This document shows, one piece after another, positions 40,572 through 56,973 of a stretch of 64,000 bases of DNA. Origin of the DNA: an uncultured Litoreibacter sp. Its GTDB lineage: Bacteria; Pseudomonadota; Alphaproteobacteria; Rhodobacterales; Rhodobacteraceae. The DNA is taken from positions 302,359 through 366,358 of the forward strand of contig CANLVO010000002.1 of assembly GCA_947494645.1 (NCBI GenBank). The letters run 5' to 3'. The notes under the pieces were generated by a model. It saw nothing but the letters and a program-made list of their open reading frames with translations, searched no databases and was not told the DNA's origin. The translations under genes were made by a program, and so were the position numbers. Position 1 is the stretch's first letter, and each line of letters begins with the position of its first letter.

Positions 40572-40574
40572 TCC

Positions 40575-41258: not shown

Positions 41259-41455
41259 AACTGGCCTCGAATTTATGCTGATTTACCGGCCCCGCAGTTG
41301 GGCCGATCTGCCGGATAAAGACCCGCTCCGAGACTCAATGTTTCCGTCCTAGAAACACCCAACACCTGCCCAGATTTAGACAGAATTAATTGAGATGGTT
41401 TCGTCAGAGGCGTGTGGGATTGCTGCGTGCTGTGTGATGAAGGGTGAGGTTTGCT

Positions 41456-43648
41456 ATGGGCAACGCACATATTCAAATGGATGAGTCCGAGAGTTATCTC
41501 GATGAACTGAAGCCGGGCACGAAGCTGCTGCACGGCCAATATACCATTAACTGTTTCCTTAACTCTGGTGGCTTCGGGATCACATATCTTGCGACCAACA
41601 GCCTTGATCGCAAGGTGGTTATCAAGGAATGCTTCCCGTCATCCTTCTGTCACCGCAGCCGCGCCATCGTTCAGGCACGCTCCGACGCGCATATCAGTGA
41701 GCTGGAAGCCATTGTGGCGCTGTTCATTCAGGAAGCCCGCAGTCTTGCGAAACTGGATCACCCGAATATCGTTGGCGTGCATGAGGTGTTTGAAGAGAAT
41801 CAGACCGCCTACATGGTGCTCGACTTTGTCGAAGGGCGCGACCTTCTGGATACGCTTGATGACCCGGATCACGGCCTGACCGGCTTGCAGGTCCAAGGCA
41901 TTCTGCGCGACGTGCTGGGCGCGGTTCAATATATCCACGACCGCGGCATTCTGCACCGCGATATCTCCCCAGATAACATCTTGCTCGACGCCGATATGCG
42001 CCCGGTTCTGATCGACTTTGGTGCGGCCCGCGAAGAGGCCAGCAAACAGACCCGCGTTCTGTCGGCCCTGCGTGTCGTCAAAGACGGGTACTCCCCGCAA
42101 GAATTCTATGTCCAAGGCAGCCCACAGACGCCATCGAGCGATCTTTATGCGCTGGCCGCCAGCTTCTACCACCTGATCGACGGCGAACTGCCACCCAACA
42201 GCCAGGCCCGTCTGGCCGCGATTGCTGCGGGCGAAAAAGATACATACGAGCCGCTGGTTGACCGGATCAAGGGCTTCGACCGTAAGTTCCTCGCGTCTAT
42301 CGACAAGGCGCTCGCCATCCTTCCCAAGGACCGTCTGCAATCTGCCGACGAATGGGTCGAGATGCTCGACAAATCCCGCCGCCTGTCCCGCGTGCCGACC
42401 CAGAACGCTCCGCTGTCATCGGCAGCGGCTGCGACATTGGAAGCGCAACGCAAGCCGAGCCTGATGCCATTGCTGAGCTCTGTCGCCGCTGTTGCGCTGC
42501 TTGCTGTCGGCGGTCTTTATCTTGCAGGTTACCTGCCTGCAGGTTCGGGTGCTGAGGAAACGGCGCAAGCGCCAATTGAAACACTTGAGCCATCGCCATC
42601 CGTTTTGGAAGCAGCGCCAGAGGCGTTGAGCGTCGAGACAGCCGAGGCCACTCCGGCGATTGAATGGACCGAATTGCAAAGCGTTGATGCCGCCACCCGG
42701 TTCGCCGCCGCTGAGCAGATCAGAAACGCTGAGGCCGCATCTCAGGTCGCCATTGCACAAGCTGAGGCCGAAACTGAAGCGCGTCTCGCAGAAGAGGCCG
42801 CAGCTGCAGAGCTGGCCGCGGCACAGGAAGCTGAAGCCGCCGAATTGGCTGCTGCTGAGGCGGAGGCAGAAGCCGCGCGTCTTGCTGCTGCTGAGGCCGA
42901 AGCTGCTGCAGAAGCACAGCGTCAGGCCGAATTGGCGGAAGCAGAGGCTGCTGCCGAAGCAGAACGCTTGGCCGCCGCAGAAGCGGAAGCCGCAGCTGCC
43001 GCTGAAGCACAGCGGTTGGCTGAAGCGGAAGCCGCAGCCGAAGCAGAACGCCTGGCCGCTGCTGAAGCGGAAGCCGCAGCAGCGGTGCCACAGCTACCCA
43101 TCATGCAATCAAACTGGAGCGTGGAGAAACCCTTCACCACCGGCGCGGATAATACGCGTATTGCAGAGGTGACCGGTGACGGCCCAAACTGGCTTCGCGT
43201 CGGTACAGAGATTGTTGCGGTGAACGGCACCCCGGTGTCGACCATGACCGAGTTTGACGAAGCCCTTCGCGCCAGCGCCACACCCGGTGACGAGATTTCG
43301 CAGCCCATGGAGCTGACAGTGCGCAGCGGCGGTTCCGAGACCACCGTAGAGTGGGAGCCCGCAATCATTCAGGAAACCCAGCTGGCCAACGGCACGACCT
43401 TCATGACCCGCTTTAGCGGCGAGGTCTGGACCACAAGCGTGACGTCCGTCGCGGAGGGCGAGACGGAGCTGCAGGTGGGTGACGAGGTGATTGCCTATAT
43501 GAGCACGTCAGAGCCGATCATCGAACGGGAAACGCTCTCCAGCATTTTCACGCGGGAGCTGCAGAACGGCACTGACGAGTTCAGCTTTGCGGTCTCCCGC
43601 GACGGCTCGATGTGGGTCGCTTCCTTTACCTATAACGGCAACGTTTAG
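41456..43648 (+). CDS. membrane-spanning Hanks-type Ser/Thr protein kinase with Ala/Glu-rich coiled-coil and C-terminal PDZ-like extracytoplasmic region
   Basis: The ATG at 41456 has a GGGTGAGG RBS. Kinase motifs are GGFGITY, VVIKE, HRDISPDNIL and DFGAA. One TM helix (SLMPLLSSVAAVALLAVGGLYLAGYL) is followed by about 365 aa. Confidence 0.85.
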   Translation: MGNAHIQMDESESYLDELKPGTKLLHGQYTINCFLNSGGFGITYLATNSLDRKVVIKECFPSSFCHRSRAIVQARSDAHISELEAIVALFIQEARSLAKLDHPNIVGVHEVFEENQTAYMVLDFVEGRDLLDTLDDPDHGLTGLQVQGILRDVLGAVQYIHDRGILHRDISPDNILLDADMRPVLIDFGAAREEASKQTRVLSALRVVKDGYSPQEFYVQGSPQTPSSDLYALAASFYHLIDGELPPNSQARLAAIAAGEKDTYEPLVDRIKGFDRKFLASIDKALAILPKDRLQSADEWVEMLDKSRRLSRVPTQNAPLSSAAAATLEAQRKPSLMPLLSSVAAVALLAVGGLYLAGYLPAGSGAEETAQAPIETLEPSPSVLEAAPEALSVETAEATPAIEWTELQSVDAATRFAAAEQIRNAEAASQVAIAQAEAETEARLAEEAAAAELAAAQEAEAAELAAAEAEAEAARLAAAEAEAAAEAQRQAELAEAEAAAEAERLAAAEAEAAAAAEAQRLAEAEAAAEAERLAAAEAEAAAAVPQLPIMQSNWSVEKPFTTGADNTRIAEVTGDGPNWLRVGTEIVAVNGTPVSTMTEFDEALRASATPGDEISQPMELTVRSGGSETTVEWEPAIIQETQLANGTTFMTRFSGEVWTTSVTSVAEGETELQVGDEVIAYMSTSEPIIERETLSSIFTRELQNGTDEFSFAVSRDGSMWVASFTYNGNV
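42953..43080 (+). repeat. in-frame 84-bp-period tandem repeat inside the kinase gene (Ala/Glu-rich)
   Basis: A 44-nt block, gccgaagcagaacgcYtggccgcYgcWgaagcggaagccgcagc, occurs at 42953-42996 and again at 43037-43080 with 3 mismatches. The surrounding 42.72-43.09 kb is degenerate GCN/GAR repeat encoding AEAEAAAEAERLAAAEAEAAAA. Confidence 0.8.
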
Positions 43649-43684
43649 CGCCAGCGCGCGCCCAAGACACGCAGAGGCAGGACA

Positions 43685-44536
43685 ATGAAATACATCCGCG
43701 ATCTACTTTCTCGCAAATCTGGTGGGGCGACCAAGCCCGATCCGGTTGAGCCAACCCCGGTTGATCTGGCGCCCCATGAGGAGCTGCCGCAAGATACCGG
43801 CCCCGTCATGCTGAGCGCCAAAGAACTGCGCGCCCAAGAGGCCGAGAGAGAGCGCAAATTTGCAGAAGTTGAAGCCGCTGCATTGGCCCAAGCCGCCGAA
43901 GAGGAGGCAAAAGCCGCCGCAGATATCCTAGAGAAAATCAACGCCAGCGTCGTCGAAGAAGCTGCCACGCCCGCAGCCCCAGTGAACATCTGGGACATCG
44001 AAGATGATGAGACCGAGGTGGCCGAAGCGCCTGAGCCCGCACCAACGCCGCGCCGTCGTCGCAACCAGACCCGTGTTCTGGGCTTTGACAATGCCGAAGG
44101 CGACGTCGTCTCGATGTTTGACAAGGCAGAGAAGACCAGCGGTGCTGTGCGTGCCAAATTCCCTGTCGGCTGGATGCTTGTGGTAGAGGGTCCGGGTCGC
44201 GGTGAATGTTTCGCGCTCGAGGCCGGGATGTCGCAAATTGGCCGTGGTGATGACCAGGCCATCAAGCTGGATTTTGGCGACAATTCGATTTCCCGAGTAA
44301 ACCATGCCGCGGTTGTCTATGACCCTGAGACCCACAACTTTATGCTGGGCCACGGCGGCAAGAAGAACATTGTTCGTCTGAACGGTGCGCCTGTCATCTC
44401 GAACGAGACGCTGAGCACCGGCGATCGGATCAAGCTGGGTGAAACGACGCTCCACTTCGTTGCCTTGTGCACTGAGGAGTTCAACTGGAACGACGATTCC
44501 AACCCGGAGGAGAGCGAAGATGTGGCGATCGCCTGA
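43685..44536 (+). CDS. FHA-domain protein
   Basis: 283 aa ORF with an acidic, Ala-rich disordered N-terminal half. The C-terminal FHA pattern is IGRGDDQAIKLDFGDNSISRVNHAAVVYD...NIVRLNG...L..GD.I.LGET.L.F. Confidence 0.85.
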   Translation: MKYIRDLLSRKSGGATKPDPVEPTPVDLAPHEELPQDTGPVMLSAKELRAQEAERERKFAEVEAAALAQAAEEEAKAAADILEKINASVVEEAATPAAPVNIWDIEDDETEVAEAPEPAPTPRRRRNQTRVLGFDNAEGDVVSMFDKAEKTSGAVRAKFPVGWMLVVEGPGRGECFALEAGMSQIGRGDDQAIKLDFGDNSISRVNHAAVVYDPETHNFMLGHGGKKNIVRLNGAPVISNETLSTGDRIKLGETTLHFVALCTEEFNWNDDSNPEESEDVAIA

Positions 44537-45488
44537 ACCAAGATTTGACGTCGCCTCCGCCATTTGCCAGGGCGGGCGCGATTACCAAGAAGACGCCATC
44601 ATCACCGATTTCCCGTTTGGAACCGACACCGGCATGGTTGTGCTGGCTGATGGCATGGGCGGCCATGCTGCCGGCGATGTCGCCTCGAAGATCGTGGTGA
44701 CGGAGGTTTTCTCGGAGCTGAAGTTCCAGAGCGCCAACTTTGTGCAGCAGGAAAAGAAGATCCCCAGCCTAATGGCCAATGCCGCCTCGCAGGCCAATCT
44801 CGCGGTGAGCGAGCACGTGTCCCATAACCCTGCCGTGCGTGGCATGGGGGCCACTTTGGTCTCATTGGTCTTGGTCGAAAACCGGATGTTCTGGATGTCG
44901 ATTGGCGACAGCCCGCTTTATCATTTCCGGTCCGGCAAAATGAAACAGCTGAACGAAGACCATTCGATGGCGCCGCAGATCGACTTCATGGCCAAGCAGG
45001 GCCTTTTGGACGCCGAAGCCGCCAAGAACCACCCGGATCGCAACGCGCTGACTTCCGTCATTCTGGGCGGGCGTGTGGCCAAGTCAGATTGCCCCGGCAC
45101 ACCGTTCGAGGTGCAGGTTGGCGATATCATCGTGGTGTCGAGCGACGGGCTGCAATATCTGGAAGAGGCGAAAATTCAGCAGATCCTGCATCGCTACCGT
45201 CGTCGCAAGAGCGCCGAGATTGCTGGCCACCTGCTTGCCGCCATCGAGACACTCGCGGACCCGGATCAGGACAACGTATCGCTGGCGGTCATCAAACTGA
45301 ACCACAACAAACCGATGGAACGTGCTATCGCGCCGAAGCCTGTCGACGCCGCGGACCATAGCGCCGCCAACTCGACCCGCGTGGTCAATCTTGATGAGGT
45401 CAAGAAAGATCAAACAGATCGCGTATCGGCGGAGACGTCCCAAGCTGACGGATCGCCCTCCAAAGTGGCGGCTGGCTCGTCAAGATGA
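44520..45488 (+). CDS. PP2C-family Ser/Thr phosphatase
   Basis: The ATG at 44520 has a GGAGGA RBS and overlaps the FHA gene by 17 nt. PP2C motifs are RDYQEDA, VLADGMGGHAAGDVAS and VVSSDGL. Confidence 0.85.
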   Translation: MWRSPEPRFDVASAICQGGRDYQEDAIITDFPFGTDTGMVVLADGMGGHAAGDVASKIVVTEVFSELKFQSANFVQQEKKIPSLMANAASQANLAVSEHVSHNPAVRGMGATLVSLVLVENRMFWMSIGDSPLYHFRSGKMKQLNEDHSMAPQIDFMAKQGLLDAEAAKNHPDRNALTSVILGGRVAKSDCPGTPFEVQVGDIIVVSSDGLQYLEEAKIQQILHRYRRRKSAEIAGHLLAAIETLADPDQDNVSLAVIKLNHNKPMERAIAPKPVDAADHSAANSTRVVNLDEVKKDQTDRVSAETSQADGSPSKVAAGSSR

Positions 45489-46720
45489 TGGACCAAGCTG
45501 ATAGCCGCGACGGTGTCAGTGAACTTCGCAGCGCCATCGCGCATGCTGGCCTGAGCGAGCCGCTCAAAGCCCGTGCACAAGCCATTCTGGAGCAGATCGA
45601 ACGCCCCGTGCGGCTGGCCTTGTTTGGCCTGCCGGGGAGCGGAAAATCCCAGATCCTCAACTTTCTGGCGGGCGCTGATGTGCTGCCAAAGGACACGCCG
45701 CTTCCAACCCTGCAGTTGAGCTATGGAGCAGAAGCCGTCGCCGAATGCACGCTTCCTGATGGGACTGTTCAGATCTTGCCGATGGACGACATGCAGGCAA
45801 TTTCAGCGCTCAAGCCCGCTTTTATCAACGCCAAGATGCCGCTTCCTGCGCTGAGAAAGATCTCTATTCTCGAGGTCCGCGCTGGTGCCTCCCCGACGGA
45901 GCAGAAACGCGCCATGGGATGGGCCTCCAAGCGAAGCGATGTCGCCCTTTGGTGCACCAAGGGCCCGTTCGGGCGCGATGAACATGCCCTTTGGGTACAG
46001 ATGCCCGCAGCCTTGCAAGACCACGCCTTCCTGATCATGACCCATGCGGACAAGCCCTCCGTCGAAGAGGCCTATCCGGGCCGAGCGGAACATGCTGAGC
46101 GTACGATGCGGGATCACTTCCAGAAGGTTTTGCCGATTGGGACGCAAAAAGCGATCTCTGCCCGCAACAAAGATGGCACGGTCGATAAAGAGACACTGCG
46201 TGGCTCTGGCGGCATGGCGCTGATCGCGGCAATCCTGCGGGTGGTAGAAGCCGGGCAGCAGGGCGCGCGCGACCAGGCGGATGTCTTCCTTCGTCAGATC
46301 GAGTTCACCCCGCCCCAACAAACGCCAACCGCCCCACCGCCGCCGGAACCGCCCAAGGTTGAGGCCACCCAAGAGCCGCAATCCACAACACTTGGAGCGG
46401 CGTCTCGGGAGGCGTGCGAACAGGCGGTCGCCCAACTGACCGCCGAAGGCACGATGATGGCGGAGGCACTGGGCAGCGTCGGTTTGGATGATGCGGAGGT
46501 TGTGGACATCTGCGTCGACACCGTTGTCTGGCTTGCCGACTTTCTGGCAGAGAGCGGTGAACCCGGTGATCAGGCCATGTCGAAGCTTCGCGCAACGGCC
46601 GTGGATGCCGCCGATTTGGTACAGTTGATCCAGCTTGAAACCAGCGAAACCGTCGCCAGCGACAGCGTCAGTATCATGGTTCAGGTGAAGCAGGAAATGC
46701 AGCAAACACTGGCGGCTTAG
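45485..46720 (+). CDS. short dynamin-like P-loop GTPase paralog with degenerate G3 motif
   Basis: ATGA overlap with the PP2C stop. G1 is GLPGSGKS and G4-like is THAD. It is collinear with the 49060 paralog (..LWCT.....E..W..P......L.T..DK). EVRAG replaces DFPG. A Pro/Thr-rich linker, FTPPQQTPTAPPPPEPP, is present. Confidence 0.6.
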   Translation: MMDQADSRDGVSELRSAIAHAGLSEPLKARAQAILEQIERPVRLALFGLPGSGKSQILNFLAGADVLPKDTPLPTLQLSYGAEAVAECTLPDGTVQILPMDDMQAISALKPAFINAKMPLPALRKISILEVRAGASPTEQKRAMGWASKRSDVALWCTKGPFGRDEHALWVQMPAALQDHAFLIMTHADKPSVEEAYPGRAEHAERTMRDHFQKVLPIGTQKAISARNKDGTVDKETLRGSGGMALIAAILRVVEAGQQGARDQADVFLRQIEFTPPQQTPTAPPPPEPPKVEATQEPQSTTLGAASREACEQAVAQLTAEGTMMAEALGSVGLDDAEVVDICVDTVVWLADFLAESGEPGDQAMSKLRATAVDAADLVQLIQLETSETVASDSVSIMVQVKQEMQQTLAA

Positions 46721-46888
46721 CACCTCGTTGCGCCTTGGTTTCCAATAAATATCAAAATGTCGCCGCATTATTGTCGCGTTGGAGGAGCCATTATCCTCTG
46801 GACCAGAACAATCTCGGCTTCTGCGCTGCACTTTGCCGACATGTACGAAACGTAACCTAGAAAGACCTTGTTTGAGGGTGGTGATTTT

Positions 46889-49063
46889 ATGATCGAAGAT
46901 GTTCAGGCAGACGCCTCAGAAAGCGTGGATGCCAACCCGACCCCTCAGCAGCCTGCCCTGACCCCGGCTTTTGCCAAACACGGTCTGGAGCAGATGGACG
47001 GCTTTGCCGAAAGCATGCACAACCTAGAAGAGGCGCTGCTCGACATTGAAAGCTTCGGTGGTCGCGAGGCCGAGAAGAAGGCCGAAACCCTCATCCAATC
47101 CGCACATGAGTTCGAACCCTCGATTACCATGATCGGGCAGATCAAGTCGGGGAAGACCTCCTTGGTCAACGCCATGGCCGGACGGCCAGAGCTGCTTCCT
47201 GCTGATGTGAACCCTTGGACTTCCGTCGTGACGTCGCTGCACCTCAACAGCTTGCGCAAGTCGGATGACCCTGTCGCGTCCTTCCGGTTCTTTGACCAGG
47301 GCGAGTGGGACTTCCTTGTGGAAAACGGTGGCCGCATTGGCGAATTGTCCAGCCGCGCCGGCGCTGATGACGAGCTGGTAAAGGTCCGCGAACAAATCGC
47401 TGAGATGCGGGAAAAGACGAAAACCCGCCTTGGCAAGAAGTTCGAACTGCTTCTGGGTCAAACCCATAATTACCGCCACCTCGATGAAGAGCTGATGCAG
47501 CGCTACGTCTGCATGGGTGACGATTTTGGCGACCCTGAGATGCTGGATGCCCAAGGGCAGTTTGCCGACATCACGAAATCGGCTGACCTGTATCTTGATG
47601 CGCCATCCATCCCGATGCCGCTGTGCATCCGCGACACGCCCGGCGTGAACGACACGTTCATGATGCGAGAGCAGATCACGATCAATGCGCTGCGTGGCAG
47701 CCGGATCTGTGTGGTCGTGCTGTCTGCCAACCAAGCACTGAGCTCGATGGATATGGGCTTGATCCGACTGATCGCCAATATCGATTCCCGCGAAGTTGTG
47801 GTCTTCGTCAACCGCATCGACGAGCTGCCAAACCCGGCGGAACAGATTGACGAAATTCGCGAATCCATCCTCAAGACGCTGGCCGACAATAACGGCCCAA
47901 GCGGGCTGCATCTGGTCTTTGGATCCGCCTATTGGGCGAACATGGCATTGCAGGAAACGATCGACGATCTGGTCCCTGATAGCGCCGCGTCACTTGCAAA
48001 CTACGCAAAAACCAAGCTGGCGGATGGGGCAGATATCACCCCTGCCGACGTCTGGGATATGTCTGGCCTGCCCGCCCTGTTTGACGCCATTTCCGAGCGG
48101 ATCAATGTGGGCGAAGGCGCGCAGGTGATCACTGGCTTGCGCAAACGTGCGCTGAACCATCTGCACGGCTTGAAAGCATCGAGTAATATCGTGTCGATGC
48201 GGATCGAGAACCAAGACCTGAAGATGATGGACCCGGCCGTTTTGGCCGAACGTCTTGACGAGATTGAAGACCGCAACATGGCCGCGTTGGACACGGCGCT
48301 GAAGCCGTTGTTCGAAAATTACACAGCGCGGATCGATCAGGCCCATAAACGGTTCCTGGATCGTGCTCTGGAGTCGCTGCTTCAGCATCTCGAGAAGCAT
48401 GGCGACAAAGAGCTTTGGCAGTACTCCCCTGAAGGGCTGCGCATGCTGTTGCGCTCGAGCTACCACTCGATGTGCAAGAAGACCGCCAATACCTGCGTTC
48501 AAGCGTTGAGCACCGCCGCCGACGATCTGTCTTCGACCTATTGCGATCTTTTGTCGATCGAGGTGGAAGGGTTCTCTGTTTCTGCGCCGGAAGCGCCAAG
48601 CTTCCCGCCACCGGTGGCATTGGGTCAGACCATCGCGCTGGATCTGCAAAGCTCATGGTGGAAAGGCTGGTGGCAACGCCGCAAGGGCTACCGTGCCTAT
48701 GCCGACAGCTTTTACGAGCTGATCGAGGCCGAAACCGCGCCGATCCTCAACGACATGAAAAGCGTGCAGGTCGACGAAATTCGTCGCATTGCGATGGCAC
48801 AGCTGCAGGACTTCCTGCTGGAGCAAGGCGGCATCCTGACCGATGTCAGCAACAAGTCGCAAATCTCGGTTGGCGAGCTGAAAGGCTTGTTTGGCATCAC
48901 CGCGCAGGAAGAGCGCGAAGCAATTTTTGACGTCCTGTTCGACGAATTTGCCGTGGATGACGAGACCCCGGACGGGCCTGAGCCCGATAGCGGACCTGCG
49001 CGTCCGACCCGGCCAACGCGTCCACAATCGACAGGATCATTCAACAAAGGAGAGGCGGCATGA
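46889..49063 (+). CDS. dynamin-family large GTPase (bacterial dynamin-like protein)
   Basis: The ATG at 46889 follows GAGGGTGGTGA. G1 is GQIKSGKTS, G3 is DTPGVND and G4 is NRID. A long helical stalk of about 450 aa contains the Trp/Arg-rich motif SSWWKGWWQRRKG. Confidence 0.75.
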   Translation: MIEDVQADASESVDANPTPQQPALTPAFAKHGLEQMDGFAESMHNLEEALLDIESFGGREAEKKAETLIQSAHEFEPSITMIGQIKSGKTSLVNAMAGRPELLPADVNPWTSVVTSLHLNSLRKSDDPVASFRFFDQGEWDFLVENGGRIGELSSRAGADDELVKVREQIAEMREKTKTRLGKKFELLLGQTHNYRHLDEELMQRYVCMGDDFGDPEMLDAQGQFADITKSADLYLDAPSIPMPLCIRDTPGVNDTFMMREQITINALRGSRICVVVLSANQALSSMDMGLIRLIANIDSREVVVFVNRIDELPNPAEQIDEIRESILKTLADNNGPSGLHLVFGSAYWANMALQETIDDLVPDSAASLANYAKTKLADGADITPADVWDMSGLPALFDAISERINVGEGAQVITGLRKRALNHLHGLKASSNIVSMRIENQDLKMMDPAVLAERLDEIEDRNMAALDTALKPLFENYTARIDQAHKRFLDRALESLLQHLEKHGDKELWQYSPEGLRMLLRSSYHSMCKKTANTCVQALSTAADDLSSTYCDLLSIEVEGFSVSAPEAPSFPPPVALGQTIALDLQSSWWKGWWQRRKGYRAYADSFYELIEAETAPILNDMKSVQVDEIRRIAMAQLQDFLLEQGGILTDVSNKSQISVGELKGLFGITAQEEREAIFDVLFDEFAVDDETPDGPEPDSGPARPTRPTRPQSTGSFNKGEAA

Positions 49064-50175
49064 GCGCCACCACCCGCAAGCCCCGCATTGCCCTGATGGG
49101 CGAGTTCAGCGCCGGGAAAAGCACGCTTTCAAACCTCTTGCTGGGTGCACGCCCCCTGCCTGAGAAGGTGACGGCCACGCGTCTGTCTCCGGTCTGGATG
49201 TCAGAAGGCACCGATGACCCTTACCGCATCGACATTGACGGCACCCAAGAGTCCGTCTCGCTGGATGCGCTTGAAGGTATTTCAGTCGAGGAAACCCGCG
49301 TGATCCGGCTGTTCTTCGAAGCCGACATTCTGGGCGCATGTGATCTGATCGACTTCCCGGGCATTTCTGACCCGAACATGTCTGCCGAGGTGTGGCAGCG
49401 CATGTTGGATGAGGTGGATGCGGTTTTGTGGTGCACCCACGCAACCCAAGCCTGGCGTCAGTCCGAGGCTGCCGTTTGGGACACTATCCCAGAGGCCGTC
49501 CGCGAGAAATCCATCCTGCTGGTCACCCGTTTTGACAAGCTCACCACGGAGCGCGACAGGTACCGCGTGATGGCCCGGCTGAACAAAGAGACACAAGGCC
49601 TGTTCGGGGCGACGTTCCCGATCTCTCTGACCCAAGCTTTGGCCGCGGGCGACGACAGCGAAGCGTTTGAAGCCAGTGGCGGCGGCGCATTCCTTGAGCA
49701 CTTCATCAGCATGATTGAAGAGCTGAGCAAGACCGTCGAGCATTCGTCGAAATCCCTTTTTGCAACAACCACCGCCAGCAGTGTGTTGGTTGCACCGAAC
49801 GAGCCTGTCTCTTTGGACGATGAACCAGAGGTCGACGCAGATATCGACGTTGCGACTCCGGAGCCCGCGATGGCGGAGCTTCGCTCGGTTCCTGATGAGC
49901 CAACGGACATCGGACAGCCGGAAGAGGTTGCACCACAAGCTGAGCCAGCACCGGAGCAATCCGACGACGAACTTCGTGTCATCCCACGTCGCATTCAACA
50001 TGCGTCCGGCGCACGTTCTGAACGCCCCTCCCGCCCGCAGACAAAAGAGCAGGTGATGGAAATGATGCGTGCAAGCCGGCCGGTGCCCAAGCCGACCGCA
50101 TCGAATGAGAGCCTCAACTCCATTTTCCACAGCAAGGGGTCCGCGGCTGCTGAAGATGAGGCCACCTCAATTTAA
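49060..50175 (+). CDS. short dynamin-like GTPase paralog
   Basis: ATGA overlap with the preceding gene and an AAAGGAGAGG RBS. G1 is GEFSAGKST, G3 is DFPGISD and G4-like is TRFD. The C-terminal 120 aa or so are acidic and Pro/Ser/Thr-rich (disordered). Confidence 0.7.
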   Translation: MSATTRKPRIALMGEFSAGKSTLSNLLLGARPLPEKVTATRLSPVWMSEGTDDPYRIDIDGTQESVSLDALEGISVEETRVIRLFFEADILGACDLIDFPGISDPNMSAEVWQRMLDEVDAVLWCTHATQAWRQSEAAVWDTIPEAVREKSILLVTRFDKLTTERDRYRVMARLNKETQGLFGATFPISLTQALAAGDDSEAFEASGGGAFLEHFISMIEELSKTVEHSSKSLFATTTASSVLVAPNEPVSLDDEPEVDADIDVATPEPAMAELRSVPDEPTDIGQPEEVAPQAEPAPEQSDDELRVIPRRIQHASGARSERPSRPQTKEQVMEMMRASRPVPKPTASNESLNSIFHSKGSAAAEDEATSI

Positions 50176-50252
50176 CGTGCTATGATTGATCTTCCAAAAA
50201 GCCGCCACTTGGATTACCCAGTGGGGACGGCCTCTTTTGGTATGGGATCACG

Positions 50253-50588
50253 ATGGTTCAAGACGCTCTGAACGCAGTGTGCGATGATATCGAAGGATGC
50301 GAATCCCTCGCCTTTGTCGACTTGTCGACGCGCATGGTGCTGGTGTCGAACGCTTCCACCCGCGAAAGCCAGGACACGCTGAACACGCTGTGCGCGGAAG
50401 CCGCGCTGCTGCTGGAAACGGGCCAGATCGCGATGGCTGCCAGCTCGGATCACGTGCACCTCTTTATGCGCTCTCCAACAGAGCCTTCGGACGCTTTGTG
50501 CTGCATCTGCGCGCCCGGCACGAATTTTTCGGCTCTCGTCCCCGCAGCGCAAGCTTGTCTTTCCACAATCAGCGGTGACGGTTCATGA
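50253..50588 (+). CDS. small protein, possibly Roadblock/LC7 (MglB-like) fold
   Basis: 111 aa ORF. The pattern IEGCESLAFVDLSTRMVLVSNA....LCAEAALLL......MAASSDHVHLFM resembles the Roadblock/LC7 alpha-beta-alpha core. The call rests on pattern recognition only. Confidence 0.35.
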   Translation: MVQDALNAVCDDIEGCESLAFVDLSTRMVLVSNASTRESQDTLNTLCAEAALLLETGQIAMAASSDHVHLFMRSPTEPSDALCCICAPGTNFSALVPAAQACLSTISGDGS

Positions 50589-51361
50589 CCGACGACAACC
50601 AGCTGACAGGCAAGATCGACGCACTGATCCGCGACGAGGCGTTTGAAGACGGCGCGATGCTTCTTGGCGACGCCGGCACGCCCGAGGTTACCACCGCGAT
50701 GCTGGAGAGCATCGACATGACGATGCTGCCCCGTGACATGGTGTTTTCCGTGGGCGCGTCCTTTGTGACATTGGCCGTCAGCGGCAAACGTGTGCGTCAC
50801 GTCACGGCGGCCTCGGATGATTTGGAGGCGCAGGAATTGATCGGGCAGCCGGTGAATGTCGATGATGCTGACACGTTGCAGAAACTTGCCTCTGTCCTGC
50901 TGGCGCTGGCCGCGATGAACGGAAAGATGACCATGGCCCGGCAGCCTGTTTCAGCGGCGCTGGATGTTGGAAATGTGGGCGTCGGATTGCGCGGGTTGAG
51001 CAAGGCGTTGGGGCCGAAACCTGCAAAGGTGACAAGCTCTGTGTCGACCCTGATGGGCGATCTAAACGACGTGCTTGGCGGGTATGCTCAGATAAACGAC
51101 GGCTCCATCACCCCGGTGAAGGGCGAGGCCGCTTTGGCAGAGGCGTTTGCCGCTCTGGAGCCGAAATGGTCAGAGCTTTCGCGCTCCCACGACAGGCTTC
51201 GTGGCTGGGCAGACAAGGACAGATTGCTGACGCTGGATGGCGTCTTGCCAGATGACGCGTTGGCACATTTTGTTTCCCTTAAGGGATCGCAAGTTGTGAT
51301 GGCGACGGCGAAAGGCAGCCTGGCGGATGTGGCCACGGCATGGGCCCGCGCGACGGAATAG
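50585..51361 (+). CDS. hypothetical protein translationally coupled to the Roadblock-like ORF
   Basis: 258 aa ORF with ATGA overlap to the upstream gene and coding-like composition. I recognise no family motif. Confidence 0.55.
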   Translation: MTDDNQLTGKIDALIRDEAFEDGAMLLGDAGTPEVTTAMLESIDMTMLPRDMVFSVGASFVTLAVSGKRVRHVTAASDDLEAQELIGQPVNVDDADTLQKLASVLLALAAMNGKMTMARQPVSAALDVGNVGVGLRGLSKALGPKPAKVTSSVSTLMGDLNDVLGGYAQINDGSITPVKGEAALAEAFAALEPKWSELSRSHDRLRGWADKDRLLTLDGVLPDDALAHFVSLKGSQVVMATAKGSLADVATAWARATE

Positions 51362-51550
51362 CAAAACAAGCCGATTCCCGCCGACCAAAACAATCCACAA
51401 GACACTAAAAATACAACAATCCTCCCTAAATTTTGCCACTTTTCTGATGAATTTTGACGGCACTAAAAACCAGTGCGCCCCTGACTTGGGGCTTTTCAAA
51501 GTAGCGCCGGCCCGGACCGCGCCATCCGCCAAGATGCAGAGGAAAACGAT

Positions 51551-53119
51551 ATGCCGATCTCCCCATTCAAGAATTCGACTTTGCGCGCATTGACGCTGCT
51601 TGGTGCAGCGATGCTGCCAACATATGGCATCGCAGATGGTATCGCCCTGACGACCACCGATGGCAGCGTGAATGTGGTTGGTGAATTCGTGAAGTTTGAA
51701 GAGGGCTACTACATCGTGAAAACCGATCTGGGCGAAATGCGCATCGCCGCATCGCAGGTTCTGTGCGAGGGCGAAGACTGCCTGCCGCTGGCCCCCCAGA
51801 TCAAAATCGCCGGATCAGACATCATCGGCCTTGAGCTGATGCCACAGCTGATCGCAGGCTACGCAAGTTCCATGAACGCCACCGCTGACATGCAAGCCGA
51901 AGACGCGCAGACCACTCTGTCGATTGTCGAGCCAAACGGCGCAACGCGTGCCAGCTATCAGGTGACGTCGACCACATCCAACGACGCGTTTGAAGCGCTG
52001 AGCGCCGGTGAAGCAGAGATCGGGATGACGTCGCGCAAGATCTCCCCCGCGGAAGCACGTGTCCTGAACCGGGCGGGCGCAGGAGATATGGCTGACCCAG
52101 AGCGTGAGCATATCGTCGCCGTCGACAGCGTCGTGGCAATCACCCATCCCGATAACCCTGTTGACACATTGAGCGTCGACGATCTTGAAAAAATCTACTC
52201 TGGCCAGATCAGAAACTGGTCGCGTCTGGGTGGCCCTGATCTTCCGATCGTCTTGGTGTCGCGCGAAGATGGGTCCGGTATTCGCAGCGCCCTTGAAGAA
52301 GGGCTGTTTGCAGGCAAGCGTGCACGCGTTGCCAACGGTGCTTTGATCGCGACGGATACAAAAACTGCCGTCTCTATGGTGAACAAGAACCCCGGTGCGT
52401 TGGGCTATGTCAGCTCTGCGTTCAAGGGTGACACCAAACCGATGTCGCTTGTGAATGAGTGCGGTATGACCCTAACGCCAGATGCGTTCTCTGCCAAAAC
52501 AGAAGAATACGCCTTTCAGCGCCGCCTGTACCTTTACAACCGTGGCGACAATCTGAGCGAAGACGCGGCAAGTTTCCTAGACTACGCGACATCCGCCGAA
52601 GCTGACGCGCTTGTCAGCGAAGCCGGGTTCACAAATTTTGGCGTTGCCGTGCGCGAACAGCCGCTTGATGGCGCCCGTGCCCGCGCGATGTTCAATCCGA
52701 ACGTCCAAGGCTACGAGATGGAAACCATCCACAAGATGCTGCTGTCGATGATGGATCATGACCGTTTGTCGACAACGTTCCGGTTCCGCACAGGGTCTAC
52801 TACACTGGACGCCCGTGGGCAGGTCGATATGGATCGCCTTACGACTTATCTGGAAGAGATGCCGGCCGGCACCAAAGTCGTCTTTGTCGGGTTTTCTGAC
52901 AATGTTGGCTCGTTCTCCAAGAACCGCGACCTGTCTGAGGGCCGCGCCGAGCAGGTCAAGAAAGCTCTGGCTGCCTTTGCCGGTGACCGCCTGAAGGGCA
53001 TCTCTTTGGCACATACAGGCTACGGCGAGGTTGCGCCGACCGCGTGCAATACCGCTGAAAAAGGTCGCCGTATGAACCGCCGCGTCGAGGTCTGGATCCA
53101 GAAATCCGCCAACAGCTGA
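51551..53119 (+). CDS. periplasmic PstS-like (type 2 PBP) domain fused to C-terminal OmpA-like peptidoglycan-binding domain, paralog 1
   Basis: GAGGAAA RBS and a signal peptide (LRALTLLGAAMLPTYGIA). It has a PstS-family pattern (IYSGQIRNWSRLGG..I..VSREDGSGIRS, GALGYVS) and an OmpA_C pattern (GFSDNVGS...NRRVEVWIQ). Confidence 0.75.
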   Translation: MPISPFKNSTLRALTLLGAAMLPTYGIADGIALTTTDGSVNVVGEFVKFEEGYYIVKTDLGEMRIAASQVLCEGEDCLPLAPQIKIAGSDIIGLELMPQLIAGYASSMNATADMQAEDAQTTLSIVEPNGATRASYQVTSTTSNDAFEALSAGEAEIGMTSRKISPAEARVLNRAGAGDMADPEREHIVAVDSVVAITHPDNPVDTLSVDDLEKIYSGQIRNWSRLGGPDLPIVLVSREDGSGIRSALEEGLFAGKRARVANGALIATDTKTAVSMVNKNPGALGYVSSAFKGDTKPMSLVNECGMTLTPDAFSAKTEEYAFQRRLYLYNRGDNLSEDAASFLDYATSAEADALVSEAGFTNFGVAVREQPLDGARARAMFNPNVQGYEMETIHKMLLSMMDHDRLSTTFRFRTGSTTLDARGQVDMDRLTTYLEEMPAGTKVVFVGFSDNVGSFSKNRDLSEGRAEQVKKALAAFAGDRLKGISLAHTGYGEVAPTACNTAEKGRRMNRRVEVWIQKSANS

Positions 53120-53176
53120 ACGCGCGCACCTGTCCCGCGCCCCCAAAGGCGCGGTTCACACCGTCAATCGCCATAT

Positions 53177-53207
53177 CAAAACAGGCCAGAAATGGCCTGT
53201 TATTGTG
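53177..53207 (+). terminator. weak hairpin terminator after PBP-OmpA paralog 1
   Basis: 8-bp stem (acaggcca, 53181-53188, pairs with tggcctgt, 53193-53200) and a 4-nt loop. The following TATTGTG is a poor U-tract. Confidence 0.4.
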
Positions 53208-53369
53208 ATCAGAGCACTGTTGACGTCTTAGATTCGCCATAATGCCCCGGGGATTCGCGGCATTTGATCGAAAACAAAGTTAATATTCCCTAAATCAACA
53301 GATTGGTGCCCCAGAAGAGACGGATTCTGACGCGAGATTTTCCCCGTACCAATGATTGGGGATACACCA

Positions 53370-54350
53370 ATGAAGAATTTGACAAGACGAGACGCGGTAT
53401 TCGGTGTCGCGACATTCGCAGCCGCAGGGATGATGACAAGCTCCCTTGCTGCGCAAACCGCCCGACGCGCCGCGAAATTTCAAGTTGCTGGCCAAGAGCC
53501 AGAACCCGAAGTTGTAAAAGAAGAGATTTTGGTTCCGCCGCTGCTGGGCGCGGAAGACCTGAAGACGCTGATCGAGATTGGCGATCCACAGATCGTAGAC
53601 ATCCGTCAGCCAAAGGCTTTCCTGTGGAACTATAGCTACGCGGCAGGGCATATCCCGAACGCCGTGAACGTACCATTCGCCAAGTTCCGCAAGCTTTGGA
53701 ACGATCCGCTGGCGACGCCTTCGGAAGAAGATTTCACCAATTTGGTACAATCGATGGGTCTGACCTATGACCGCCCCGTGGTGCTGGTGCATTCCAGCGG
53801 CGCGAAAGGGAATTTCGGTTTTGCCACTTTCGCCTATTGGACCCTGAAGACCGCGGGTTTCACCAACATGGCCATCCTGAACGGCGGTATTGCCGAATGG
53901 AAAGCCTCTGGCGGCGAGATGACCCAAGACAAGGTCAAAATCGTCAAGTCTGACACGGTGGCCTTCGTCAACGACGAATGGCTGGCGACGCATGAAGATG
54001 TGGACGCGGTTCTTGATGGAACCAGCACCGCGCAGCTTCTGGACGCCCGGCCGTTGCATCAGATCATGGAAGACGCCTCCCTTGAGGGCTCCTTTACTCT
54101 GAACGCCGAAGACCTTGTCGCTGGCGAAAACGGACAAGCCGCAGATGATCTTTCGATCTTCATCAAGATCAAACAGGCCGGTCTGGATTGGGAATATGAT
54201 GAGGTCATCACCTACTGCAACAACGGCGCTCTCGCGACTGTTGACTGGTTCATGGCCAACGAAATCGCGGGCATCCCGAATGTCAAAGTCTATGGCCATT
54301 CGCTGAAAGCCCGTCGGAAGGCAGAGAAGGCGAGGCAGCAAAATGGATAA
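53370..54350 (+). CDS. Tat-exported tandem-rhodanese sulfurtransferase
   Basis: The ATG at 53370 gives MKNLTRRDAVFGVATFAAAGMMTSSLAAQ, a twin-arginine signal. There are two rhodanese repeats, and the second carries the active-site loop YCNNGALAT. Confidence 0.8.
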   Translation: MKNLTRRDAVFGVATFAAAGMMTSSLAAQTARRAAKFQVAGQEPEPEVVKEEILVPPLLGAEDLKTLIEIGDPQIVDIRQPKAFLWNYSYAAGHIPNAVNVPFAKFRKLWNDPLATPSEEDFTNLVQSMGLTYDRPVVLVHSSGAKGNFGFATFAYWTLKTAGFTNMAILNGGIAEWKASGGEMTQDKVKIVKSDTVAFVNDEWLATHEDVDAVLDGTSTAQLLDARPLHQIMEDASLEGSFTLNAEDLVAGENGQAADDLSIFIKIKQAGLDWEYDEVITYCNNGALATVDWFMANEIAGIPNVKVYGHSLKARRKAEKARQQNG

Positions 54351-54420
54351 GTCCGTTACAAAAAATACCCGAGCAATGAGCGAAAACGCCCCGAAACGCG
54401 GGCAAGCATGGAGACGCAAT

Positions 54421-56004
54421 ATGTCCCTGAAATCTTTATCCCTCCTTTTGTCCAGCGCCTCGATGAGCGTGCTGCTGGCGGCGACCCCTTCAATGGCGGG
54501 CACCGTTACCCTGACGTCCCCGAACTCGGACACCAGCCTGCGTGGCGAGCTGGTCGCAGTTGAGGACGACAAATACGTCATCGAGACGTCGATCGGTACG
54601 ATGCGTGTCGCAATGGACATGGTGACCTGCGAAGGCGAGTCTTGCCCGGTCATCGAGATCAACAACGAGATCAACCTCGTCGGGTCTCCGACGCTGACAG
54701 ATCGTCTGATGCCTGCGCTCTTGGCTGGTTACTCCTTGGCGATTGGCGGCTCTGCCGACATGACCGAGGGTGATGAGAAGAAGCGCGTCTACGCTTTGAA
54801 CTCTGAGCGGGTCGGCGAAGGTGCACTAACGCTGACATCAAGCGGCGCCACTTCGGCTTTTGAAGCTCTGGCGAAACGTGAAGTGAGCCTGGCGCTTACA
54901 ACACGCCCTGCAAGCGACGCGGAAGCTCAGGCGGCCAAGGCCACCGGCATTCCTGCCTTGCGCGGTGTCGGCCATGAGCATGTGATCGGCTATGACGGTC
55001 TGCTTCTTGTGACCAACAACTCAAACGGTATCCGCGCAATCTCTGAGGCCGCCGCAGCACAGATTTTCTCAGGCAAGATCAAGAACTGGTCCGAGCTGGG
55101 CGGCGAAGACGCCCCGATCAACGTCTATGTTCGCGAAGAAGGCAGCGGTGCCCGCAGCCTGTTTGACGAGATGCTGATGCGGTCGAACCGCGAGCGTGTG
55201 TCTGCTGATGCGAACCAAATGCTGACGGATGCTGATGTGGCCGCAGCGGTTGCCAGCGACCCGAACGGTTTTGGCTTTACGTCCATGGTTTATGCCAGCG
55301 ACACCGTTAAGCCACTGGCCATTGAAGGCGTCTGCGGTCTGCGGACACCTCCAACCAGCTTCACCATCAAGACCGGTGAGTACCCGCTGACACGTCCGCT
55401 CTATCTGTATTCCGCAAGCGGCACGACCAACGGCCACACCGAGGAGTTCGTGAAATACGTGACCTCCGAGGAAGGCCAGAAGATGGTCGCAGCAGCCGGT
55501 TTCGTGGGACAGACGATCTCCAGCGAGGCGCTCAATGCGCAGGGCACACGTGTGGCCTCTACCTTGCTGCTTCACGAAGACAAGAACGGTGATATCGGCT
55601 CGATCCGCAACATGCTGTCGATGCTGATGGCCTCTGACCGCCTCAGCACCACGGTGCGCTTCACCCAAGGCAACAGCCGTCTGGACGCCAGCGCTCAGGC
55701 AGATGTGGAACGCCTTGGCGAGATGCTGACAACCGCGGAATATGCCGACAAGGAGTTCTACTTCATGGGCTTCTCCGACTCGGTTGGCCGCGCAGACCTG
55801 AACCAGCTGCTGGCGCTGCAACGTGCCGAGCTGGTGCGCAAAGCACTGCTTGAGAAGCACCCTGAGCTTGCAGGTCGCATCAAAGCGCGCTCGGTCGGCT
55901 TCGGCGAAATCTCTCCGTTGGGTTGCAACGAGACCCGCGCCGGACGTAGCATCAACCGCCGCGTTGAGGTCTGGATGCAGGATATCGCAAGCAAGCGCTC
56001 CTAA
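54421..56004 (+). CDS. periplasmic PstS-like domain fused to OmpA-like domain, paralog 2
   Basis: The ATG at 54421 gives the signal peptide MSLKSLSLLLSSASMSVLLAATPSMAG. It is collinear with the 51551 paralog (IFSGKIKNWSELGG..I..YVREEGSGARS; GFSDSVGR...NRRVEVWMQ). Confidence 0.75.
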   Translation: MSLKSLSLLLSSASMSVLLAATPSMAGTVTLTSPNSDTSLRGELVAVEDDKYVIETSIGTMRVAMDMVTCEGESCPVIEINNEINLVGSPTLTDRLMPALLAGYSLAIGGSADMTEGDEKKRVYALNSERVGEGALTLTSSGATSAFEALAKREVSLALTTRPASDAEAQAAKATGIPALRGVGHEHVIGYDGLLLVTNNSNGIRAISEAAAAQIFSGKIKNWSELGGEDAPINVYVREEGSGARSLFDEMLMRSNRERVSADANQMLTDADVAAAVASDPNGFGFTSMVYASDTVKPLAIEGVCGLRTPPTSFTIKTGEYPLTRPLYLYSASGTTNGHTEEFVKYVTSEEGQKMVAAAGFVGQTISSEALNAQGTRVASTLLLHEDKNGDIGSIRNMLSMLMASDRLSTTVRFTQGNSRLDASAQADVERLGEMLTTAEYADKEFYFMGFSDSVGRADLNQLLALQRAELVRKALLEKHPELAGRIKARSVGFGEISPLGCNETRAGRSINRRVEVWMQDIASKRS

Positions 56005-56026
56005 GCGTAAGCAGATGAAAATACAG

Positions 56027-56061
56027 ATGGCCGTCCCTGTCCGGGGCGGCCATTTTCTTTT
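56027..56061 (+). terminator. intrinsic terminator closing the 41.4-56.0 kb cluster
   Basis: 11-bp stem (atggccgtccc pairs with ggggcggccat, one G-U) and a 5-nt loop, followed by TTTCTTTT. Confidence 0.8.
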
Positions 56062-56142
56062 GCGTCGGGCCGCAATTCGATCCGCTGCAGGTATCGACGC
56101 CGCACGGACGAAAAGTTAGGCTCCCGCAGCAAGGGAGGCGAC

Positions 56143-56973
56143 ATGACCGGCTACAATCCAGAGGATGACGGGGCGCAAATGTCGTTCGCCAAGGACATGT
56201 CCTATACCGACTATCTGTCGTTGGACCCGATCCTGGGCGCGCAGAATCTGCAATCCACCGCGCATGATGAGATGCTGTTCATCATCCAGCATCAGACGTC
56301 GGAACTTTGGATGCGGCTGTGCCTGCACGAGCTGTCGGTGGCCCGCGCGTCTCTGTCGCAAGGTGCGTTTCAGGAAAGTTTCAAAATGCTGACCCGTGTG
56401 GCGCGGATATTCGAGCAGCTCAATAACGCGTGGGATGTTTTGCGGACGATGACGCCCAGCGAATATACAGAATTCCGCGACGATCTTGGCGCATCTTCCG
56501 GCTTTCAGTCGCACCAATACCGGTTGATCGAGTTCATCCTCGGAAACCGTAATCGCGCCATGATGAAGGTGCATGAACACCGCCCCGAACTGCACCACAT
56601 GCTGGGGCAGGAGCTGACGACCAAATCGCTTTACCATGTCGTTCTGGACCGGCTGGGGGACGCGATGGGCGAACCGTTTCCGGACGATGCCTACCGCATG
56701 GACGCGCCGCATCAGGCGCATGACGACGTGGCTGCCGCATGGATCAAGGTCTATGAGGATCCGCATGCCCATTGGCACCTCTATGAGCTGGCGGAAAAGC
56801 TAGTCGACCTGGAGGACTACTTTCGCCGCTGGCGCTTCAACCACGTCACCACCGTGGAACGCATCATCGGTTTCAAACGCGGCACTGGCGGCACATCAGG
56901 GGTAAAATACCTGCGGCGCATGCTTGAGGTCGAACTTTTCCCAGAACTCTGGAACATACGAGGCGCATTGTGA
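56143..56973 (+). CDS. kynA: tryptophan 2,3-dioxygenase
   Basis: 276 aa ORF with an AGGGAGG RBS. Motifs [28 protein letters not shown] and GTGGTSG are typical of bacterial TDO. Confidence 0.9.

Follow-up and report, generated by a model that had tools for sequence, protein, structure and literature searches.

A conserved eight-gene module joining kinase, FHA and phosphatase genes to dynamin-type and Roadblock-fold proteins in Rhodobacteraceae

Gene content and layout of the locus

The window analyzed here is a single stretch of 64,000 nucleotides (sharing about 95% identity with an uncultured Litoreibacter sp.), and the system under study is a gene cluster at positions 41456-56004, whose 11 open reading frames (ORFs) all lie on the + strand (Table 1). 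Eight of them, g1 to g8 (41456-51361), form the conserved core, which codes for a Hanks-type Ser/Thr kinase (STK), an FHA-domain protein, a PP2C-type phosphatase, three dynamin-type G-domain proteins, a predicted Roadblock/LC7-fold protein and an orphan protein; the other three (g9 to g11) code for exported proteins. A preliminary description of this DNA had presented it as a cluster of 12 genes joining kinase, FHA and PP2C signaling to dynamin-like GTPases, a Roadblock-like protein and periplasmic binding proteins, but ORF analysis reduces the count to 11, and comparison of related loci reduces the conserved unit to eight; the title of that description had mentioned neither the orphan g8 (258 aa) nor g10 with its two rhodanese domains.

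Several of the junctions are overlaps. The ATG of the PP2C gene (44520) lies within the FHA gene, which stops at 44536, ATGA start/stop overlaps occur at 45485 (g3/g4), 49060 (g5/g6) and 50585 (g7/g8), and a possible fifth overlap is found between g10 and g11 (54343-54350). As far as can be read from the sequence, g5/g6 and g7/g8 are translationally coupled pairs. The gaps before g5, g9 and g10 are AT-richer (GC 0.51-0.54 versus about 0.59). Upstream, the cluster is preceded by a gene for a monomeric isocitrate dehydrogenase (IDH) and then by an FAH-family gene that ends at 41258, and the start codon of g1 (ATG at 41456) is preceded by a GGTGAGG ribosome-binding site. Downstream, a terminator stem of 13 bp with 8 GC pairs (56025-56055) is followed by a T tract. 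The common strand, both boundaries, the first four overlaps and the three AT-richer gaps had all been recorded in the preliminary description and were found again.

The gap between g4 and g5 has a similar size in every related locus, and the alignment of these loci contains a partly conserved block of approximately TTCCAAT..ATCAAATTG..GCCACA..TTTGCCG, which is described as loose because it could not be captured as a pattern. No significant RNA fold was predicted in this gap (z -0.24), and an Rfam scan of 40000-57000 returned nothing credible. In a Leisingera plasmid (locus L084, see below) the module is split into two operons exactly at the g4-g5 junction; this split, together with the presence of the gap in every locus, makes it likely that g1-g4 and g5-g8 are the transcription units, and the gap itself is likely an internal promoter or operator.

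Table 1. Features of the cluster, in window coordinates.
Feature	Position	Strand	Description
g1	41456..43648	+	bitopic Hanks Ser/Thr kinase, 734 aa
g2	43685..44536	+	FHA-domain protein
g3	44520..45488	+	PP2C-type Ser/Thr phosphatase
g4	45485..46720	+	short dynamin-type G-domain protein, P-loop, 411 aa, degenerate G3
g4-g5 intergenic gap	46721..46888	.	AT-richer, loosely conserved block
g5	46889..49063	+	long DLP1-like dynamin-like protein, 724 aa
g6	49060..50175	+	short DLP2-like G-domain protein, 371 aa
g7	50253..50588	+	Roadblock/LC7-fold protein (predicted), 111 aa
g8	50585..51361	+	orphan cytoplasmic protein, 258 aa
g9	51551..53119	+	exported PBP_like_2 + OmpA protein
g10	53352..54350	+	Tat-exported double-rhodanese protein
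g11	54343..56004	+	exported PBP_like_2 + OmpA protein, g9 paralog
Intrinsic terminator	56025..56063	+	13-bp stem + T tract

Domains and motifs of the encoded proteins

The products of g5 and g6 both exceed the Pfam cut-off for Dynamin_N (45.3 and 38.5 bits, respectively; cut-off 27) and keep the G1 to G4 dynamin motifs, among them GQIKSGKTS (G1), DTPG (G3) and NRID (G4) in g5, and GEFSAGKST (G1), DFPG (G3) and TRFD (G4) in g6. In profile searches against PDB, g5 is best matched by the dynamin-like protein (DLP) Cj-DLP1 of Campylobacter jejuni (5owv_A, E 1.1e-10), followed by the BDLP of Nostoc (2j68), and g6 by its partner, Cj-DLP2 (5owv_C, E 2.1e-13). Among the three dynamin-type proteins, only g5 (724 aa) has the length of a full dynamin; g4 and g6 are composed of a G domain of about 230-270 aa and a tail, and are too short for a full dynamin trunk. 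A conserved Trp-rich segment in g5 (SWWKGWWxRRKGY) is a candidate membrane-binding element, and the disordered tail of g6 contains an invariant PRR(V/I) motif. The tail of g5 (48990-49063) also contains a conserved PxRPxRPxRP repeat (PARPTRPTRPQ in the window), which agrees with a PxxPxR ligand pattern and recalls the domain rich in proline and arginine that eukaryotic dynamin carries.

The third protein, g4, scores under the Pfam threshold for Dynamin_N and is assigned to the dynamin type by profile search, its best PDB match being also Cj-DLP2 (5owv_C, E 1.8e-10). It aligns with g6 over 224 columns (hhalign probability 99.7%, E 1.6e-25) and, on this comparison, is clearly a paralog of it. 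It retains the P-loop (GLPGSGKS) and a G4-like motif (TKAD, which reads THAD in the window), but in the family alignment E-V-x-[A/T/P] stands in place of the DxxG of G3, and therefore g4 is probably a nucleotide-binding protein with non-canonical catalysis. The rest of the protein consists of a variable linker rich in Pro, Ala and Glu and of a helical domain, conserved, at the C-terminus. The proposal of three dynamin-like GTPases is thus borne out by the profile searches at the level of the G domain, but not for the DxxG motif of g4, nor for a full trunk in g4 and g6.

g7 was assigned by structure prediction. Its AlphaFold2 model (predicted local distance difference test, pLDDT, 84.4) has the topology alpha-beta-beta-alpha-beta-beta-beta-alpha, and its top Foldseek matches are Roadblock/LC7 proteins, namely 3kye from Streptomyces, MglC (7ct3), LAMTOR and MglB (TM-scores 0.66-0.78, probability 1.0), so that the modeled protein has the Roadblock/LC7 fold, as had been supposed before. 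No Pfam Robl_LC7 match was obtained with the window protein or with 49 family members, even at E 5, although two g7 orthologs are named as Roadblock-domain proteins in UniRef. The family comprises 582 clusters at 50% identity, and the clusters of distant g7 relatives carry almost no taxonomic assignment. Five cysteines are conserved among the 49 family members: C47, C83 and C84 occur in all of them, and C16 and C86 in 90% or more. Cytoplasmic Roadblock domains do not usually have such cysteines, which may form a metal site or act as a redox switch.

g8 follows g7 in nearly all loci and evolves fast (median identity 27%). No match to it was found in Pfam, NCBIfam, PADLOC or PDB, no family was hit consistently when its family members were searched against Pfam at E 5, and tblastn against plasmids gave a single partial match. 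Profile searches against PDB sequences were negative for both g7 and g8, as was the comparison of the g7 and g8 profiles with each other. A tandem Roadblock structure was considered for g8 but is not proposed, since it came from low-confidence secondary structure alone, and profile comparisons of the g8 halves with g7 and with each other were negative. g7 and g8 are therefore two protein families without a Pfam model.

The signaling genes g1, g2 and g3 precede the dynamin-type genes. The kinase g1 gives a Pkinase match of 109.7 bits in Pfam and keeps its catalytic Lys (VVIKE), HRD (HRDISPDN) and DFG motifs. It contains one hydrophobic segment (residues 337-367 of 734), which is the sole predicted transmembrane (TM) helix of the cluster and leaves about 365 aa outside the membrane, in agreement with the bitopic topology first proposed. 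The kinase domain lies on the cytoplasmic side. Past this helix, an Ala/Glu-rich low-complexity linker leads to a C-terminal ectodomain (about 190 aa), which is conserved and also kept in Yoonia. This ectodomain is weakly matched by Pfam PDZ_2 and PDZ_6 (E 0.002) and, in profile searches, mostly by the PDZ domains of DegP (best, E 0.009), RseP-type site-2 proteases and DegQ; it is likely a PDZ-like tandem.

The FHA domain of g2 scores 28.6 bits (cut-off 20.7), and the residues of its phospho-threonine pocket (GR, SR, NH and N) are invariant in 22 aligned orthologs; the protein further carries a MKFIRDL motif, conserved, at its N-terminus, an I-W-D motif and a basic RRRxKTR motif. g3 matches PP2C_2 (45.4 bits, cut-off 24) and the Stp1/IreP-like family (148 bits), and contains DGMGG, GDS, SDG and DN motifs. 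No gene of the module is better conserved than g3, whose median identity over the loci is 77%. The catalytic and phospho-threonine-binding motifs of the triad, as judged from the sequences and the FHA alignment, are intact.

The C-terminal ends of two proteins are also conserved: ...EDVAIA-COOH in g2, invariant in 22/22 orthologs (window 44519-44536), and ...ELQADLAA-COOH in g4, which is near-invariant (window 46697-46720). Both ends resemble ssrA/ClpXP-type degrons or C-terminal peptide ligands. They are kept in the Leisingera plasmid unnamed5 (g4 ...AQLAA; FHA ...HVEIA) and missing from the diverged copy of plasmid unnamed4.

Of the exported proteins, g9 and g11 are 34% identical and combine a PstS-like binding-protein domain (PBP_like_2, 109.6 and 112.1 bits) with an OmpA-like, peptidoglycan-binding one (OmpA, 38.7 and 37.6 bits). 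Against the PstS family TIGR02136, g9 reaches 127.9 bits, below the cut-off of 206.6, so that only the superfamily-level PBP_like_2 match passes. g10 contains two Rhodanese domains (85.1 bits) and a twin-arginine translocation (Tat) type motif, TRRDAVFG; its active-site loop reads CNNGA. The N-termini of all three are signal-like when read by eye, and their export had been anticipated, as had the Pkinase, FHA, PP2C and two PBP_like_2 plus OmpA assignments, which the profile matches uphold.

Conservation and rearranged variants

A pattern scan for g5 over one genome per GTDB species (185,579 species genomes) found relatives in at least 491 of them. The 80 best loci, 64 of which have enough flanking sequence, were compared; wherever a family or genus is named they belong to Rhodobacteraceae, apart from one probably mis-binned MAG (L066, see below) (Litoreibacter, Yoonia, Loktanella, Cognatiyoonia, Marivita, Jannaschia and others), and some are labeled just Pseudomonadota or Alphaproteobacteria. 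g5 and g6 are adjacent in 80/80 loci, and g1-g8 are complete and collinear in 53 of the 64, with protein identities that go down to about 25-60%, which exceeds what chance would produce. Incomplete loci mostly miss g8, whose identity (22-27%) is there below detection. In Yoonia vestfoldensis, the module consists of exactly g1-g8 and is flanked by unrelated metabolic genes. The median identities of g4, g7 and g8 are 27-41%. PBP-OmpA genes, on the other hand, stand beside the module in 15 of the 64 loci (16/80 overall) and the g10 rhodanese in three related loci. Since g1-g8 are collinear while g9-g11 are mostly absent, the conserved unit is eight genes. Conservation of the neighborhood, which had been set in advance as a test of the cluster, is therefore observed for the core and not for the PBP-OmpA and rhodanese genes.

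Rearranged variants retain nearly the full part list in at least three different gene orders. Leisingera sp. S132 contains two copies. The copy on plasmid unnamed4 (g5 identity 46%) has the eight genes in the same order with no binding proteins nearby, and its kinase (438 aa) lacks both TM helix and ectodomain. The copy on plasmid unnamed5 (L084) is arranged as two convergent operons, one with DLP-DLP-g7-g8 and the other with STK-SBP-(LysM+SBP)-FHA-PP2C-g4 (SBP, solute-binding protein), and its kinase has both the TM helix and the ectodomain. On a replicon of Ruegeria sp. AD91A (L085), the order is DLP-DLP-g7-g8-DLP-DLP-STK-FHA-PP2C-SBP-(LysM+SBP), with four DLPs and no annotated g4-type gene, and the module adjoins a monomeric IDH gene. 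In a Litoreibacter-like metagenome-assembled genome (MAG; L003), g8 is followed by a PBP-OmpA gene, a LysM+SBP_bac_3 gene and a further PBP_like_2 gene.

A more distant locus is found on a plasmid of Rhodobacter sp. CZR27 (L082, 817-11267; g5 identity 36%), where the genes after four tandem dynamins code for a sensor histidine kinase, a DUF6781 protein and an AarF/UbiB kinase. No STK, FHA or PP2C gene lies on the downstream side, which is the side covered, as the locus opens the circular record. The STK/FHA/PP2C triad appears specific to the closer clade, and this locus suggests that alternative signaling layers attach to DLP pairs.

The cell-wall-anchored periplasmic binding protein is, by domain composition, a recurrent accessory of the module. 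LysM+SBP proteins replace g9 in the Leisingera unnamed5, Ruegeria and L003 loci; OmpA-like and LysM domains are non-homologous peptidoglycan-binding modules, each fused here to a binding-protein fold. Such fusions recur beside kinases with an ectodomain, and none lies near the Leisingera kinase that lacks TM helix and ectodomain. The finding of LysM-fused binding proteins in the place of PBP-OmpA strengthens the idea of a periplasmic, cell-wall-linked input. On the other hand, g10 is probably outside the conserved system: in each of its three loci it adjoins a g11 homolog, the pair being inverted and upstream in one of them (L007). Instead of belonging to the dynamin system, g10-g11 may form a periplasmic module of their own that deals with sulfur or anions.

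These data bear on whether the cluster is one system at all. The eight-gene module could simply lie beside unrelated periplasmic phosphate or sulfur genes (g9-g11), or its STK/FHA/PP2C and DLP halves could be independent of each other, in line with the absence of g9-g11 from most related loci, the occurrence of g10-g11 as a pair of their own and the AT-richer gaps ahead of g5, g9 and g10. However, both halves remain together through at least three gene orders, and analogous wall-anchored binding proteins are encoded within the signaling half in Leisingera and Ruegeria, so that this explanation is considered quite improbable.

Comparison with known systems and proposed mechanism

Bacterial DLP genes are mostly paired in operons, and membranes are tethered by a 2:2 tetramer of Cj-DLP1 with Cj-DLP2 (PMC6104087). 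The Campylobacter jejuni pair (5OWV) resembles the window in that g5 and g6 are adjacent and co-directional, g5 being similar to DLP1 and the G domains of g6 and g4 to that of DLP2. Compared with Cj-DLP2 (614 aa), however, g6 (371 aa) and g4 (411 aa) are a G domain plus a tail, without full neck and trunk; a third, G3-degenerate paralog is added, and the kinase, the FHA protein, the PP2C phosphatase, the Roadblock protein and the orphan are all absent from the Campylobacter operon.

Dynamin-family proteins encoded together are also found in the LeoABC systems ("Dynamins" in PADLOC, with models LeoA and LeoBC). Anti-phage effects have been reported for LeoABC and for DynA of B. subtilis, and the window module could accordingly be read as a kinase-gated LeoABC relative in defense against phages or gene transfer agents, in which infection would trigger phospho-signaling and the DLPs would seal the membrane or delay lysis. 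This explanation draws on PADLOC matches of g5 to LeoA (37.6 bits) and LeoBC (25.3 bits) and of g6 (about 23 bits), on matches of g1 to the defense-kinase models PD-T4-6 and mad6, on the fast evolution of g4, g7 and g8, and on extra paralogous copies on plasmids, including the two of Leisingera sp. S132. The dynamin matches are, however, low and partial over the models, and those of the kinase come from its generic kinase domain alone. The gene set and context also differ from LeoABC, with no defense island around the module, and membership in LeoABC was rejected as no full-length LeoA or LeoBC match exists. Housekeeping genes (IDH/FAH, GAPDH and kynurenine genes) surround the module, mobile and defense genes are absent nearby, g5 identity declines by genus rather than patchily, and no relative was found among IMG/VR viral contigs. 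Stable housekeeping flanks, the genus-wise identity gradient and the lack of a mobile, defense or viral context favor a physiological role in the envelope, and the anti-phage alternative, already raised in the preliminary description, gains little from the genomic context and is regarded as unlikely.

A membrane Hanks kinase with an extracytoplasmic sensor, an FHA protein and a PP2C phosphatase also occur together in the PpkA/PppA/Fha1 pathway of the type VI secretion system (T6SS) of P. aeruginosa and in mycobacteria (PknB/PstP/FhaA). The window module differs from the PpkA and PknB switches in that its output consists of dynamin-like GTPases and its ectodomain is PDZ-like rather than vWA or PASTA. 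Domain searches found no T6SS family among the cluster genes or their flanks, and no peptidoglycan-synthesis genes; membership in the T6SS threonine-phosphorylation pathway was rejected on the absence of T6SS genes at the locus.

In actinobacteria, PknB/FhaA/PstP control wall synthesis, and Streptomyces DynA/DynB act at septa. A role in envelope morphogenesis, that is in division, polar growth or outer-membrane-vesicle formation instead of stress repair, could be proposed by the same token for this module, whose intact triad resembles those that control cell-wall growth, whose accessories repeatedly bind peptidoglycan (OmpA-like, LysM), and which seems to be vertically inherited, with flanks stable within genera. 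However, none of the variants examined has a linked gene for division, peptidoglycan synthesis or lipid transport, and g5 relatives in just 491 of 185,579 species genomes (a count across all species, not within Rhodobacteraceae) make it not universal. Morphogenesis is considered about as improbable as defense.

Small Roadblock-fold proteins encoded beside G proteins are known from MglA/MglB, the Streptomyces conservons (CvnA-D) and Rag/Ragulator. The G proteins of the module are of dynamin type, not Ras-like as MglA and CvnD, and neither a histidine kinase nor a DUF742 protein is present; g7 also differs from the known Roadblock regulators in lacking a Pfam Robl_LC7 match and in its five conserved cysteines. 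Membership in the conservon type was rejected on the absence of a Ras-like partner GTPase.

NCBIfam gives no specific name for the system, two surveys of the Aravind laboratory do not cover the combination, and full-text literature searches, in texts that are not exhaustive of the literature, returned no description of a dynamin/FHA/PP2C/kinase/Roadblock neighborhood. With Pfam and PADLOC also yielding no named system with this combination, the statement of the preliminary description that no characterized system matches holds for the sources searched. The module is apparently uncharacterized, and it varies the theme of the bacterial dynamin pair with an apparently novel regulatory layer.

The best reading of the module, to which about an even chance is given, is that a heteromeric dynamin machine of the inner membrane is under the control of a phospho-threonine switch triggered by an envelope cue. 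The bitopic kinase would sense a periplasmic or cell-wall cue through its PDZ-like ectodomain, and in many lineages peptidoglycan-anchored binding proteins (here g9 and g11) would be added as a co-input. The kinase would then phosphorylate a threonine, the best candidates being the invariant Thr of the FHA motif RRRxKTR or residues in the disordered tails of g4 or g6, and FHA would bind the phospho-threonine and nucleate or release the dynamin machine, with PP2C resetting the switch. The machine is composed of g5, its coupled partner g6, and g4, which would probably serve as a regulatory subunit that binds nucleotide. On the model of MglB and Ragulator, g7 and its partner g8 may be a platform or a regulator of the short G domains, similar to a GTPase-activating protein or a guanine nucleotide exchange factor. 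As output, the inner membrane would be tethered, fused or repaired in a GTP-dependent manner when the envelope is under stress. This scheme builds on what was observed: which domains are present, that their motifs are intact, the predicted topology, the translational coupling, the co-conservation of the genes and the accessory types that recur. The preliminary description had already suggested a flow from periplasmic sensing through phospho-threonine signaling to membrane work by GTPases; its periplasmic input is strengthened by the recurrent wall-anchored binding proteins, while the flow itself stays an inference. The module is real and widely conserved, and this earlier interpretation is plausible but unproven.

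Several observations weigh against this reading of an envelope-triggered switch. The system is known here from its genes alone, and both the phospho-acceptor and the FHA target are candidates. No TM helix is predicted in g5, which also has no proven paddle, and the PDZ assignment of the g1 ectodomain derives from sub-threshold matches (E about 0.002-0.009). g8 has no recognizable fold, its AlphaFold2 model reaching a pLDDT of 41 and its best Foldseek match an E of 0.25, which is meaningless; the model is poor because the alignment is shallow (seven close g8 homologs, obtained with a fused g7+g8 query). The modules of Yoonia and Loktanella lack a neighboring binding protein although their kinase has the ectodomain. 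A conflict system would likewise account for the speed at which g4, g7 and g8 diverge.

A more specific proposal, put forward tentatively and considered less probable than the switch itself, is that the dynamin GTPases are under two controls, a Roadblock regulator (g7 together with g8) and a reversible Ser/Thr phosphorylation that FHA reads. The module would then be a prokaryotic counterpart of two eukaryotic principles, Roadblock/longin platforms over G proteins and the control of dynamin or Drp1 by kinases. If so, its input would be the PDZ-like ectodomain together with the wall-anchored binding proteins, and the PxRPxRPxRP tail of g5 would correspond in function to the proline/arginine-rich domain of dynamin.

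For most bacterial DLPs, neither the role in the cell nor the regulators are known as yet. In this widespread syntenic module, three DLPs are wired to a sensor kinase, an FHA adaptor, a phosphatase and a Roadblock protein, which makes it possible to ask by genetics what signal activates a bacterial dynamin and through which partners it does so, and the recurrent pairing of a wall-binding domain with a binding-protein fold provides candidate co-sensors of a Hanks kinase.

Some observations concern the genes around the module. A GAPDH gene lies upstream in 42 loci of the Yoonia/Loktanella type, and an upstream 431-aa ORF in Yoonia was discarded as an antisense shadow of the GAPDH gene. One locus in a gammaproteobacterial MAG labeled "Luminiphilus" (L066) contains a Yoonia-like module (g5 identity 60%) with the upstream gene of Yoonia; a binning error is the most likely cause, more so than a transfer. 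The gene for the monomeric NADP-isocitrate dehydrogenase adjoins the module both in the window (38355-40571) and in Ruegeria (L085, 3290-5503), and this shared neighbor, despite the different gene order, hints at an old common insertion site.

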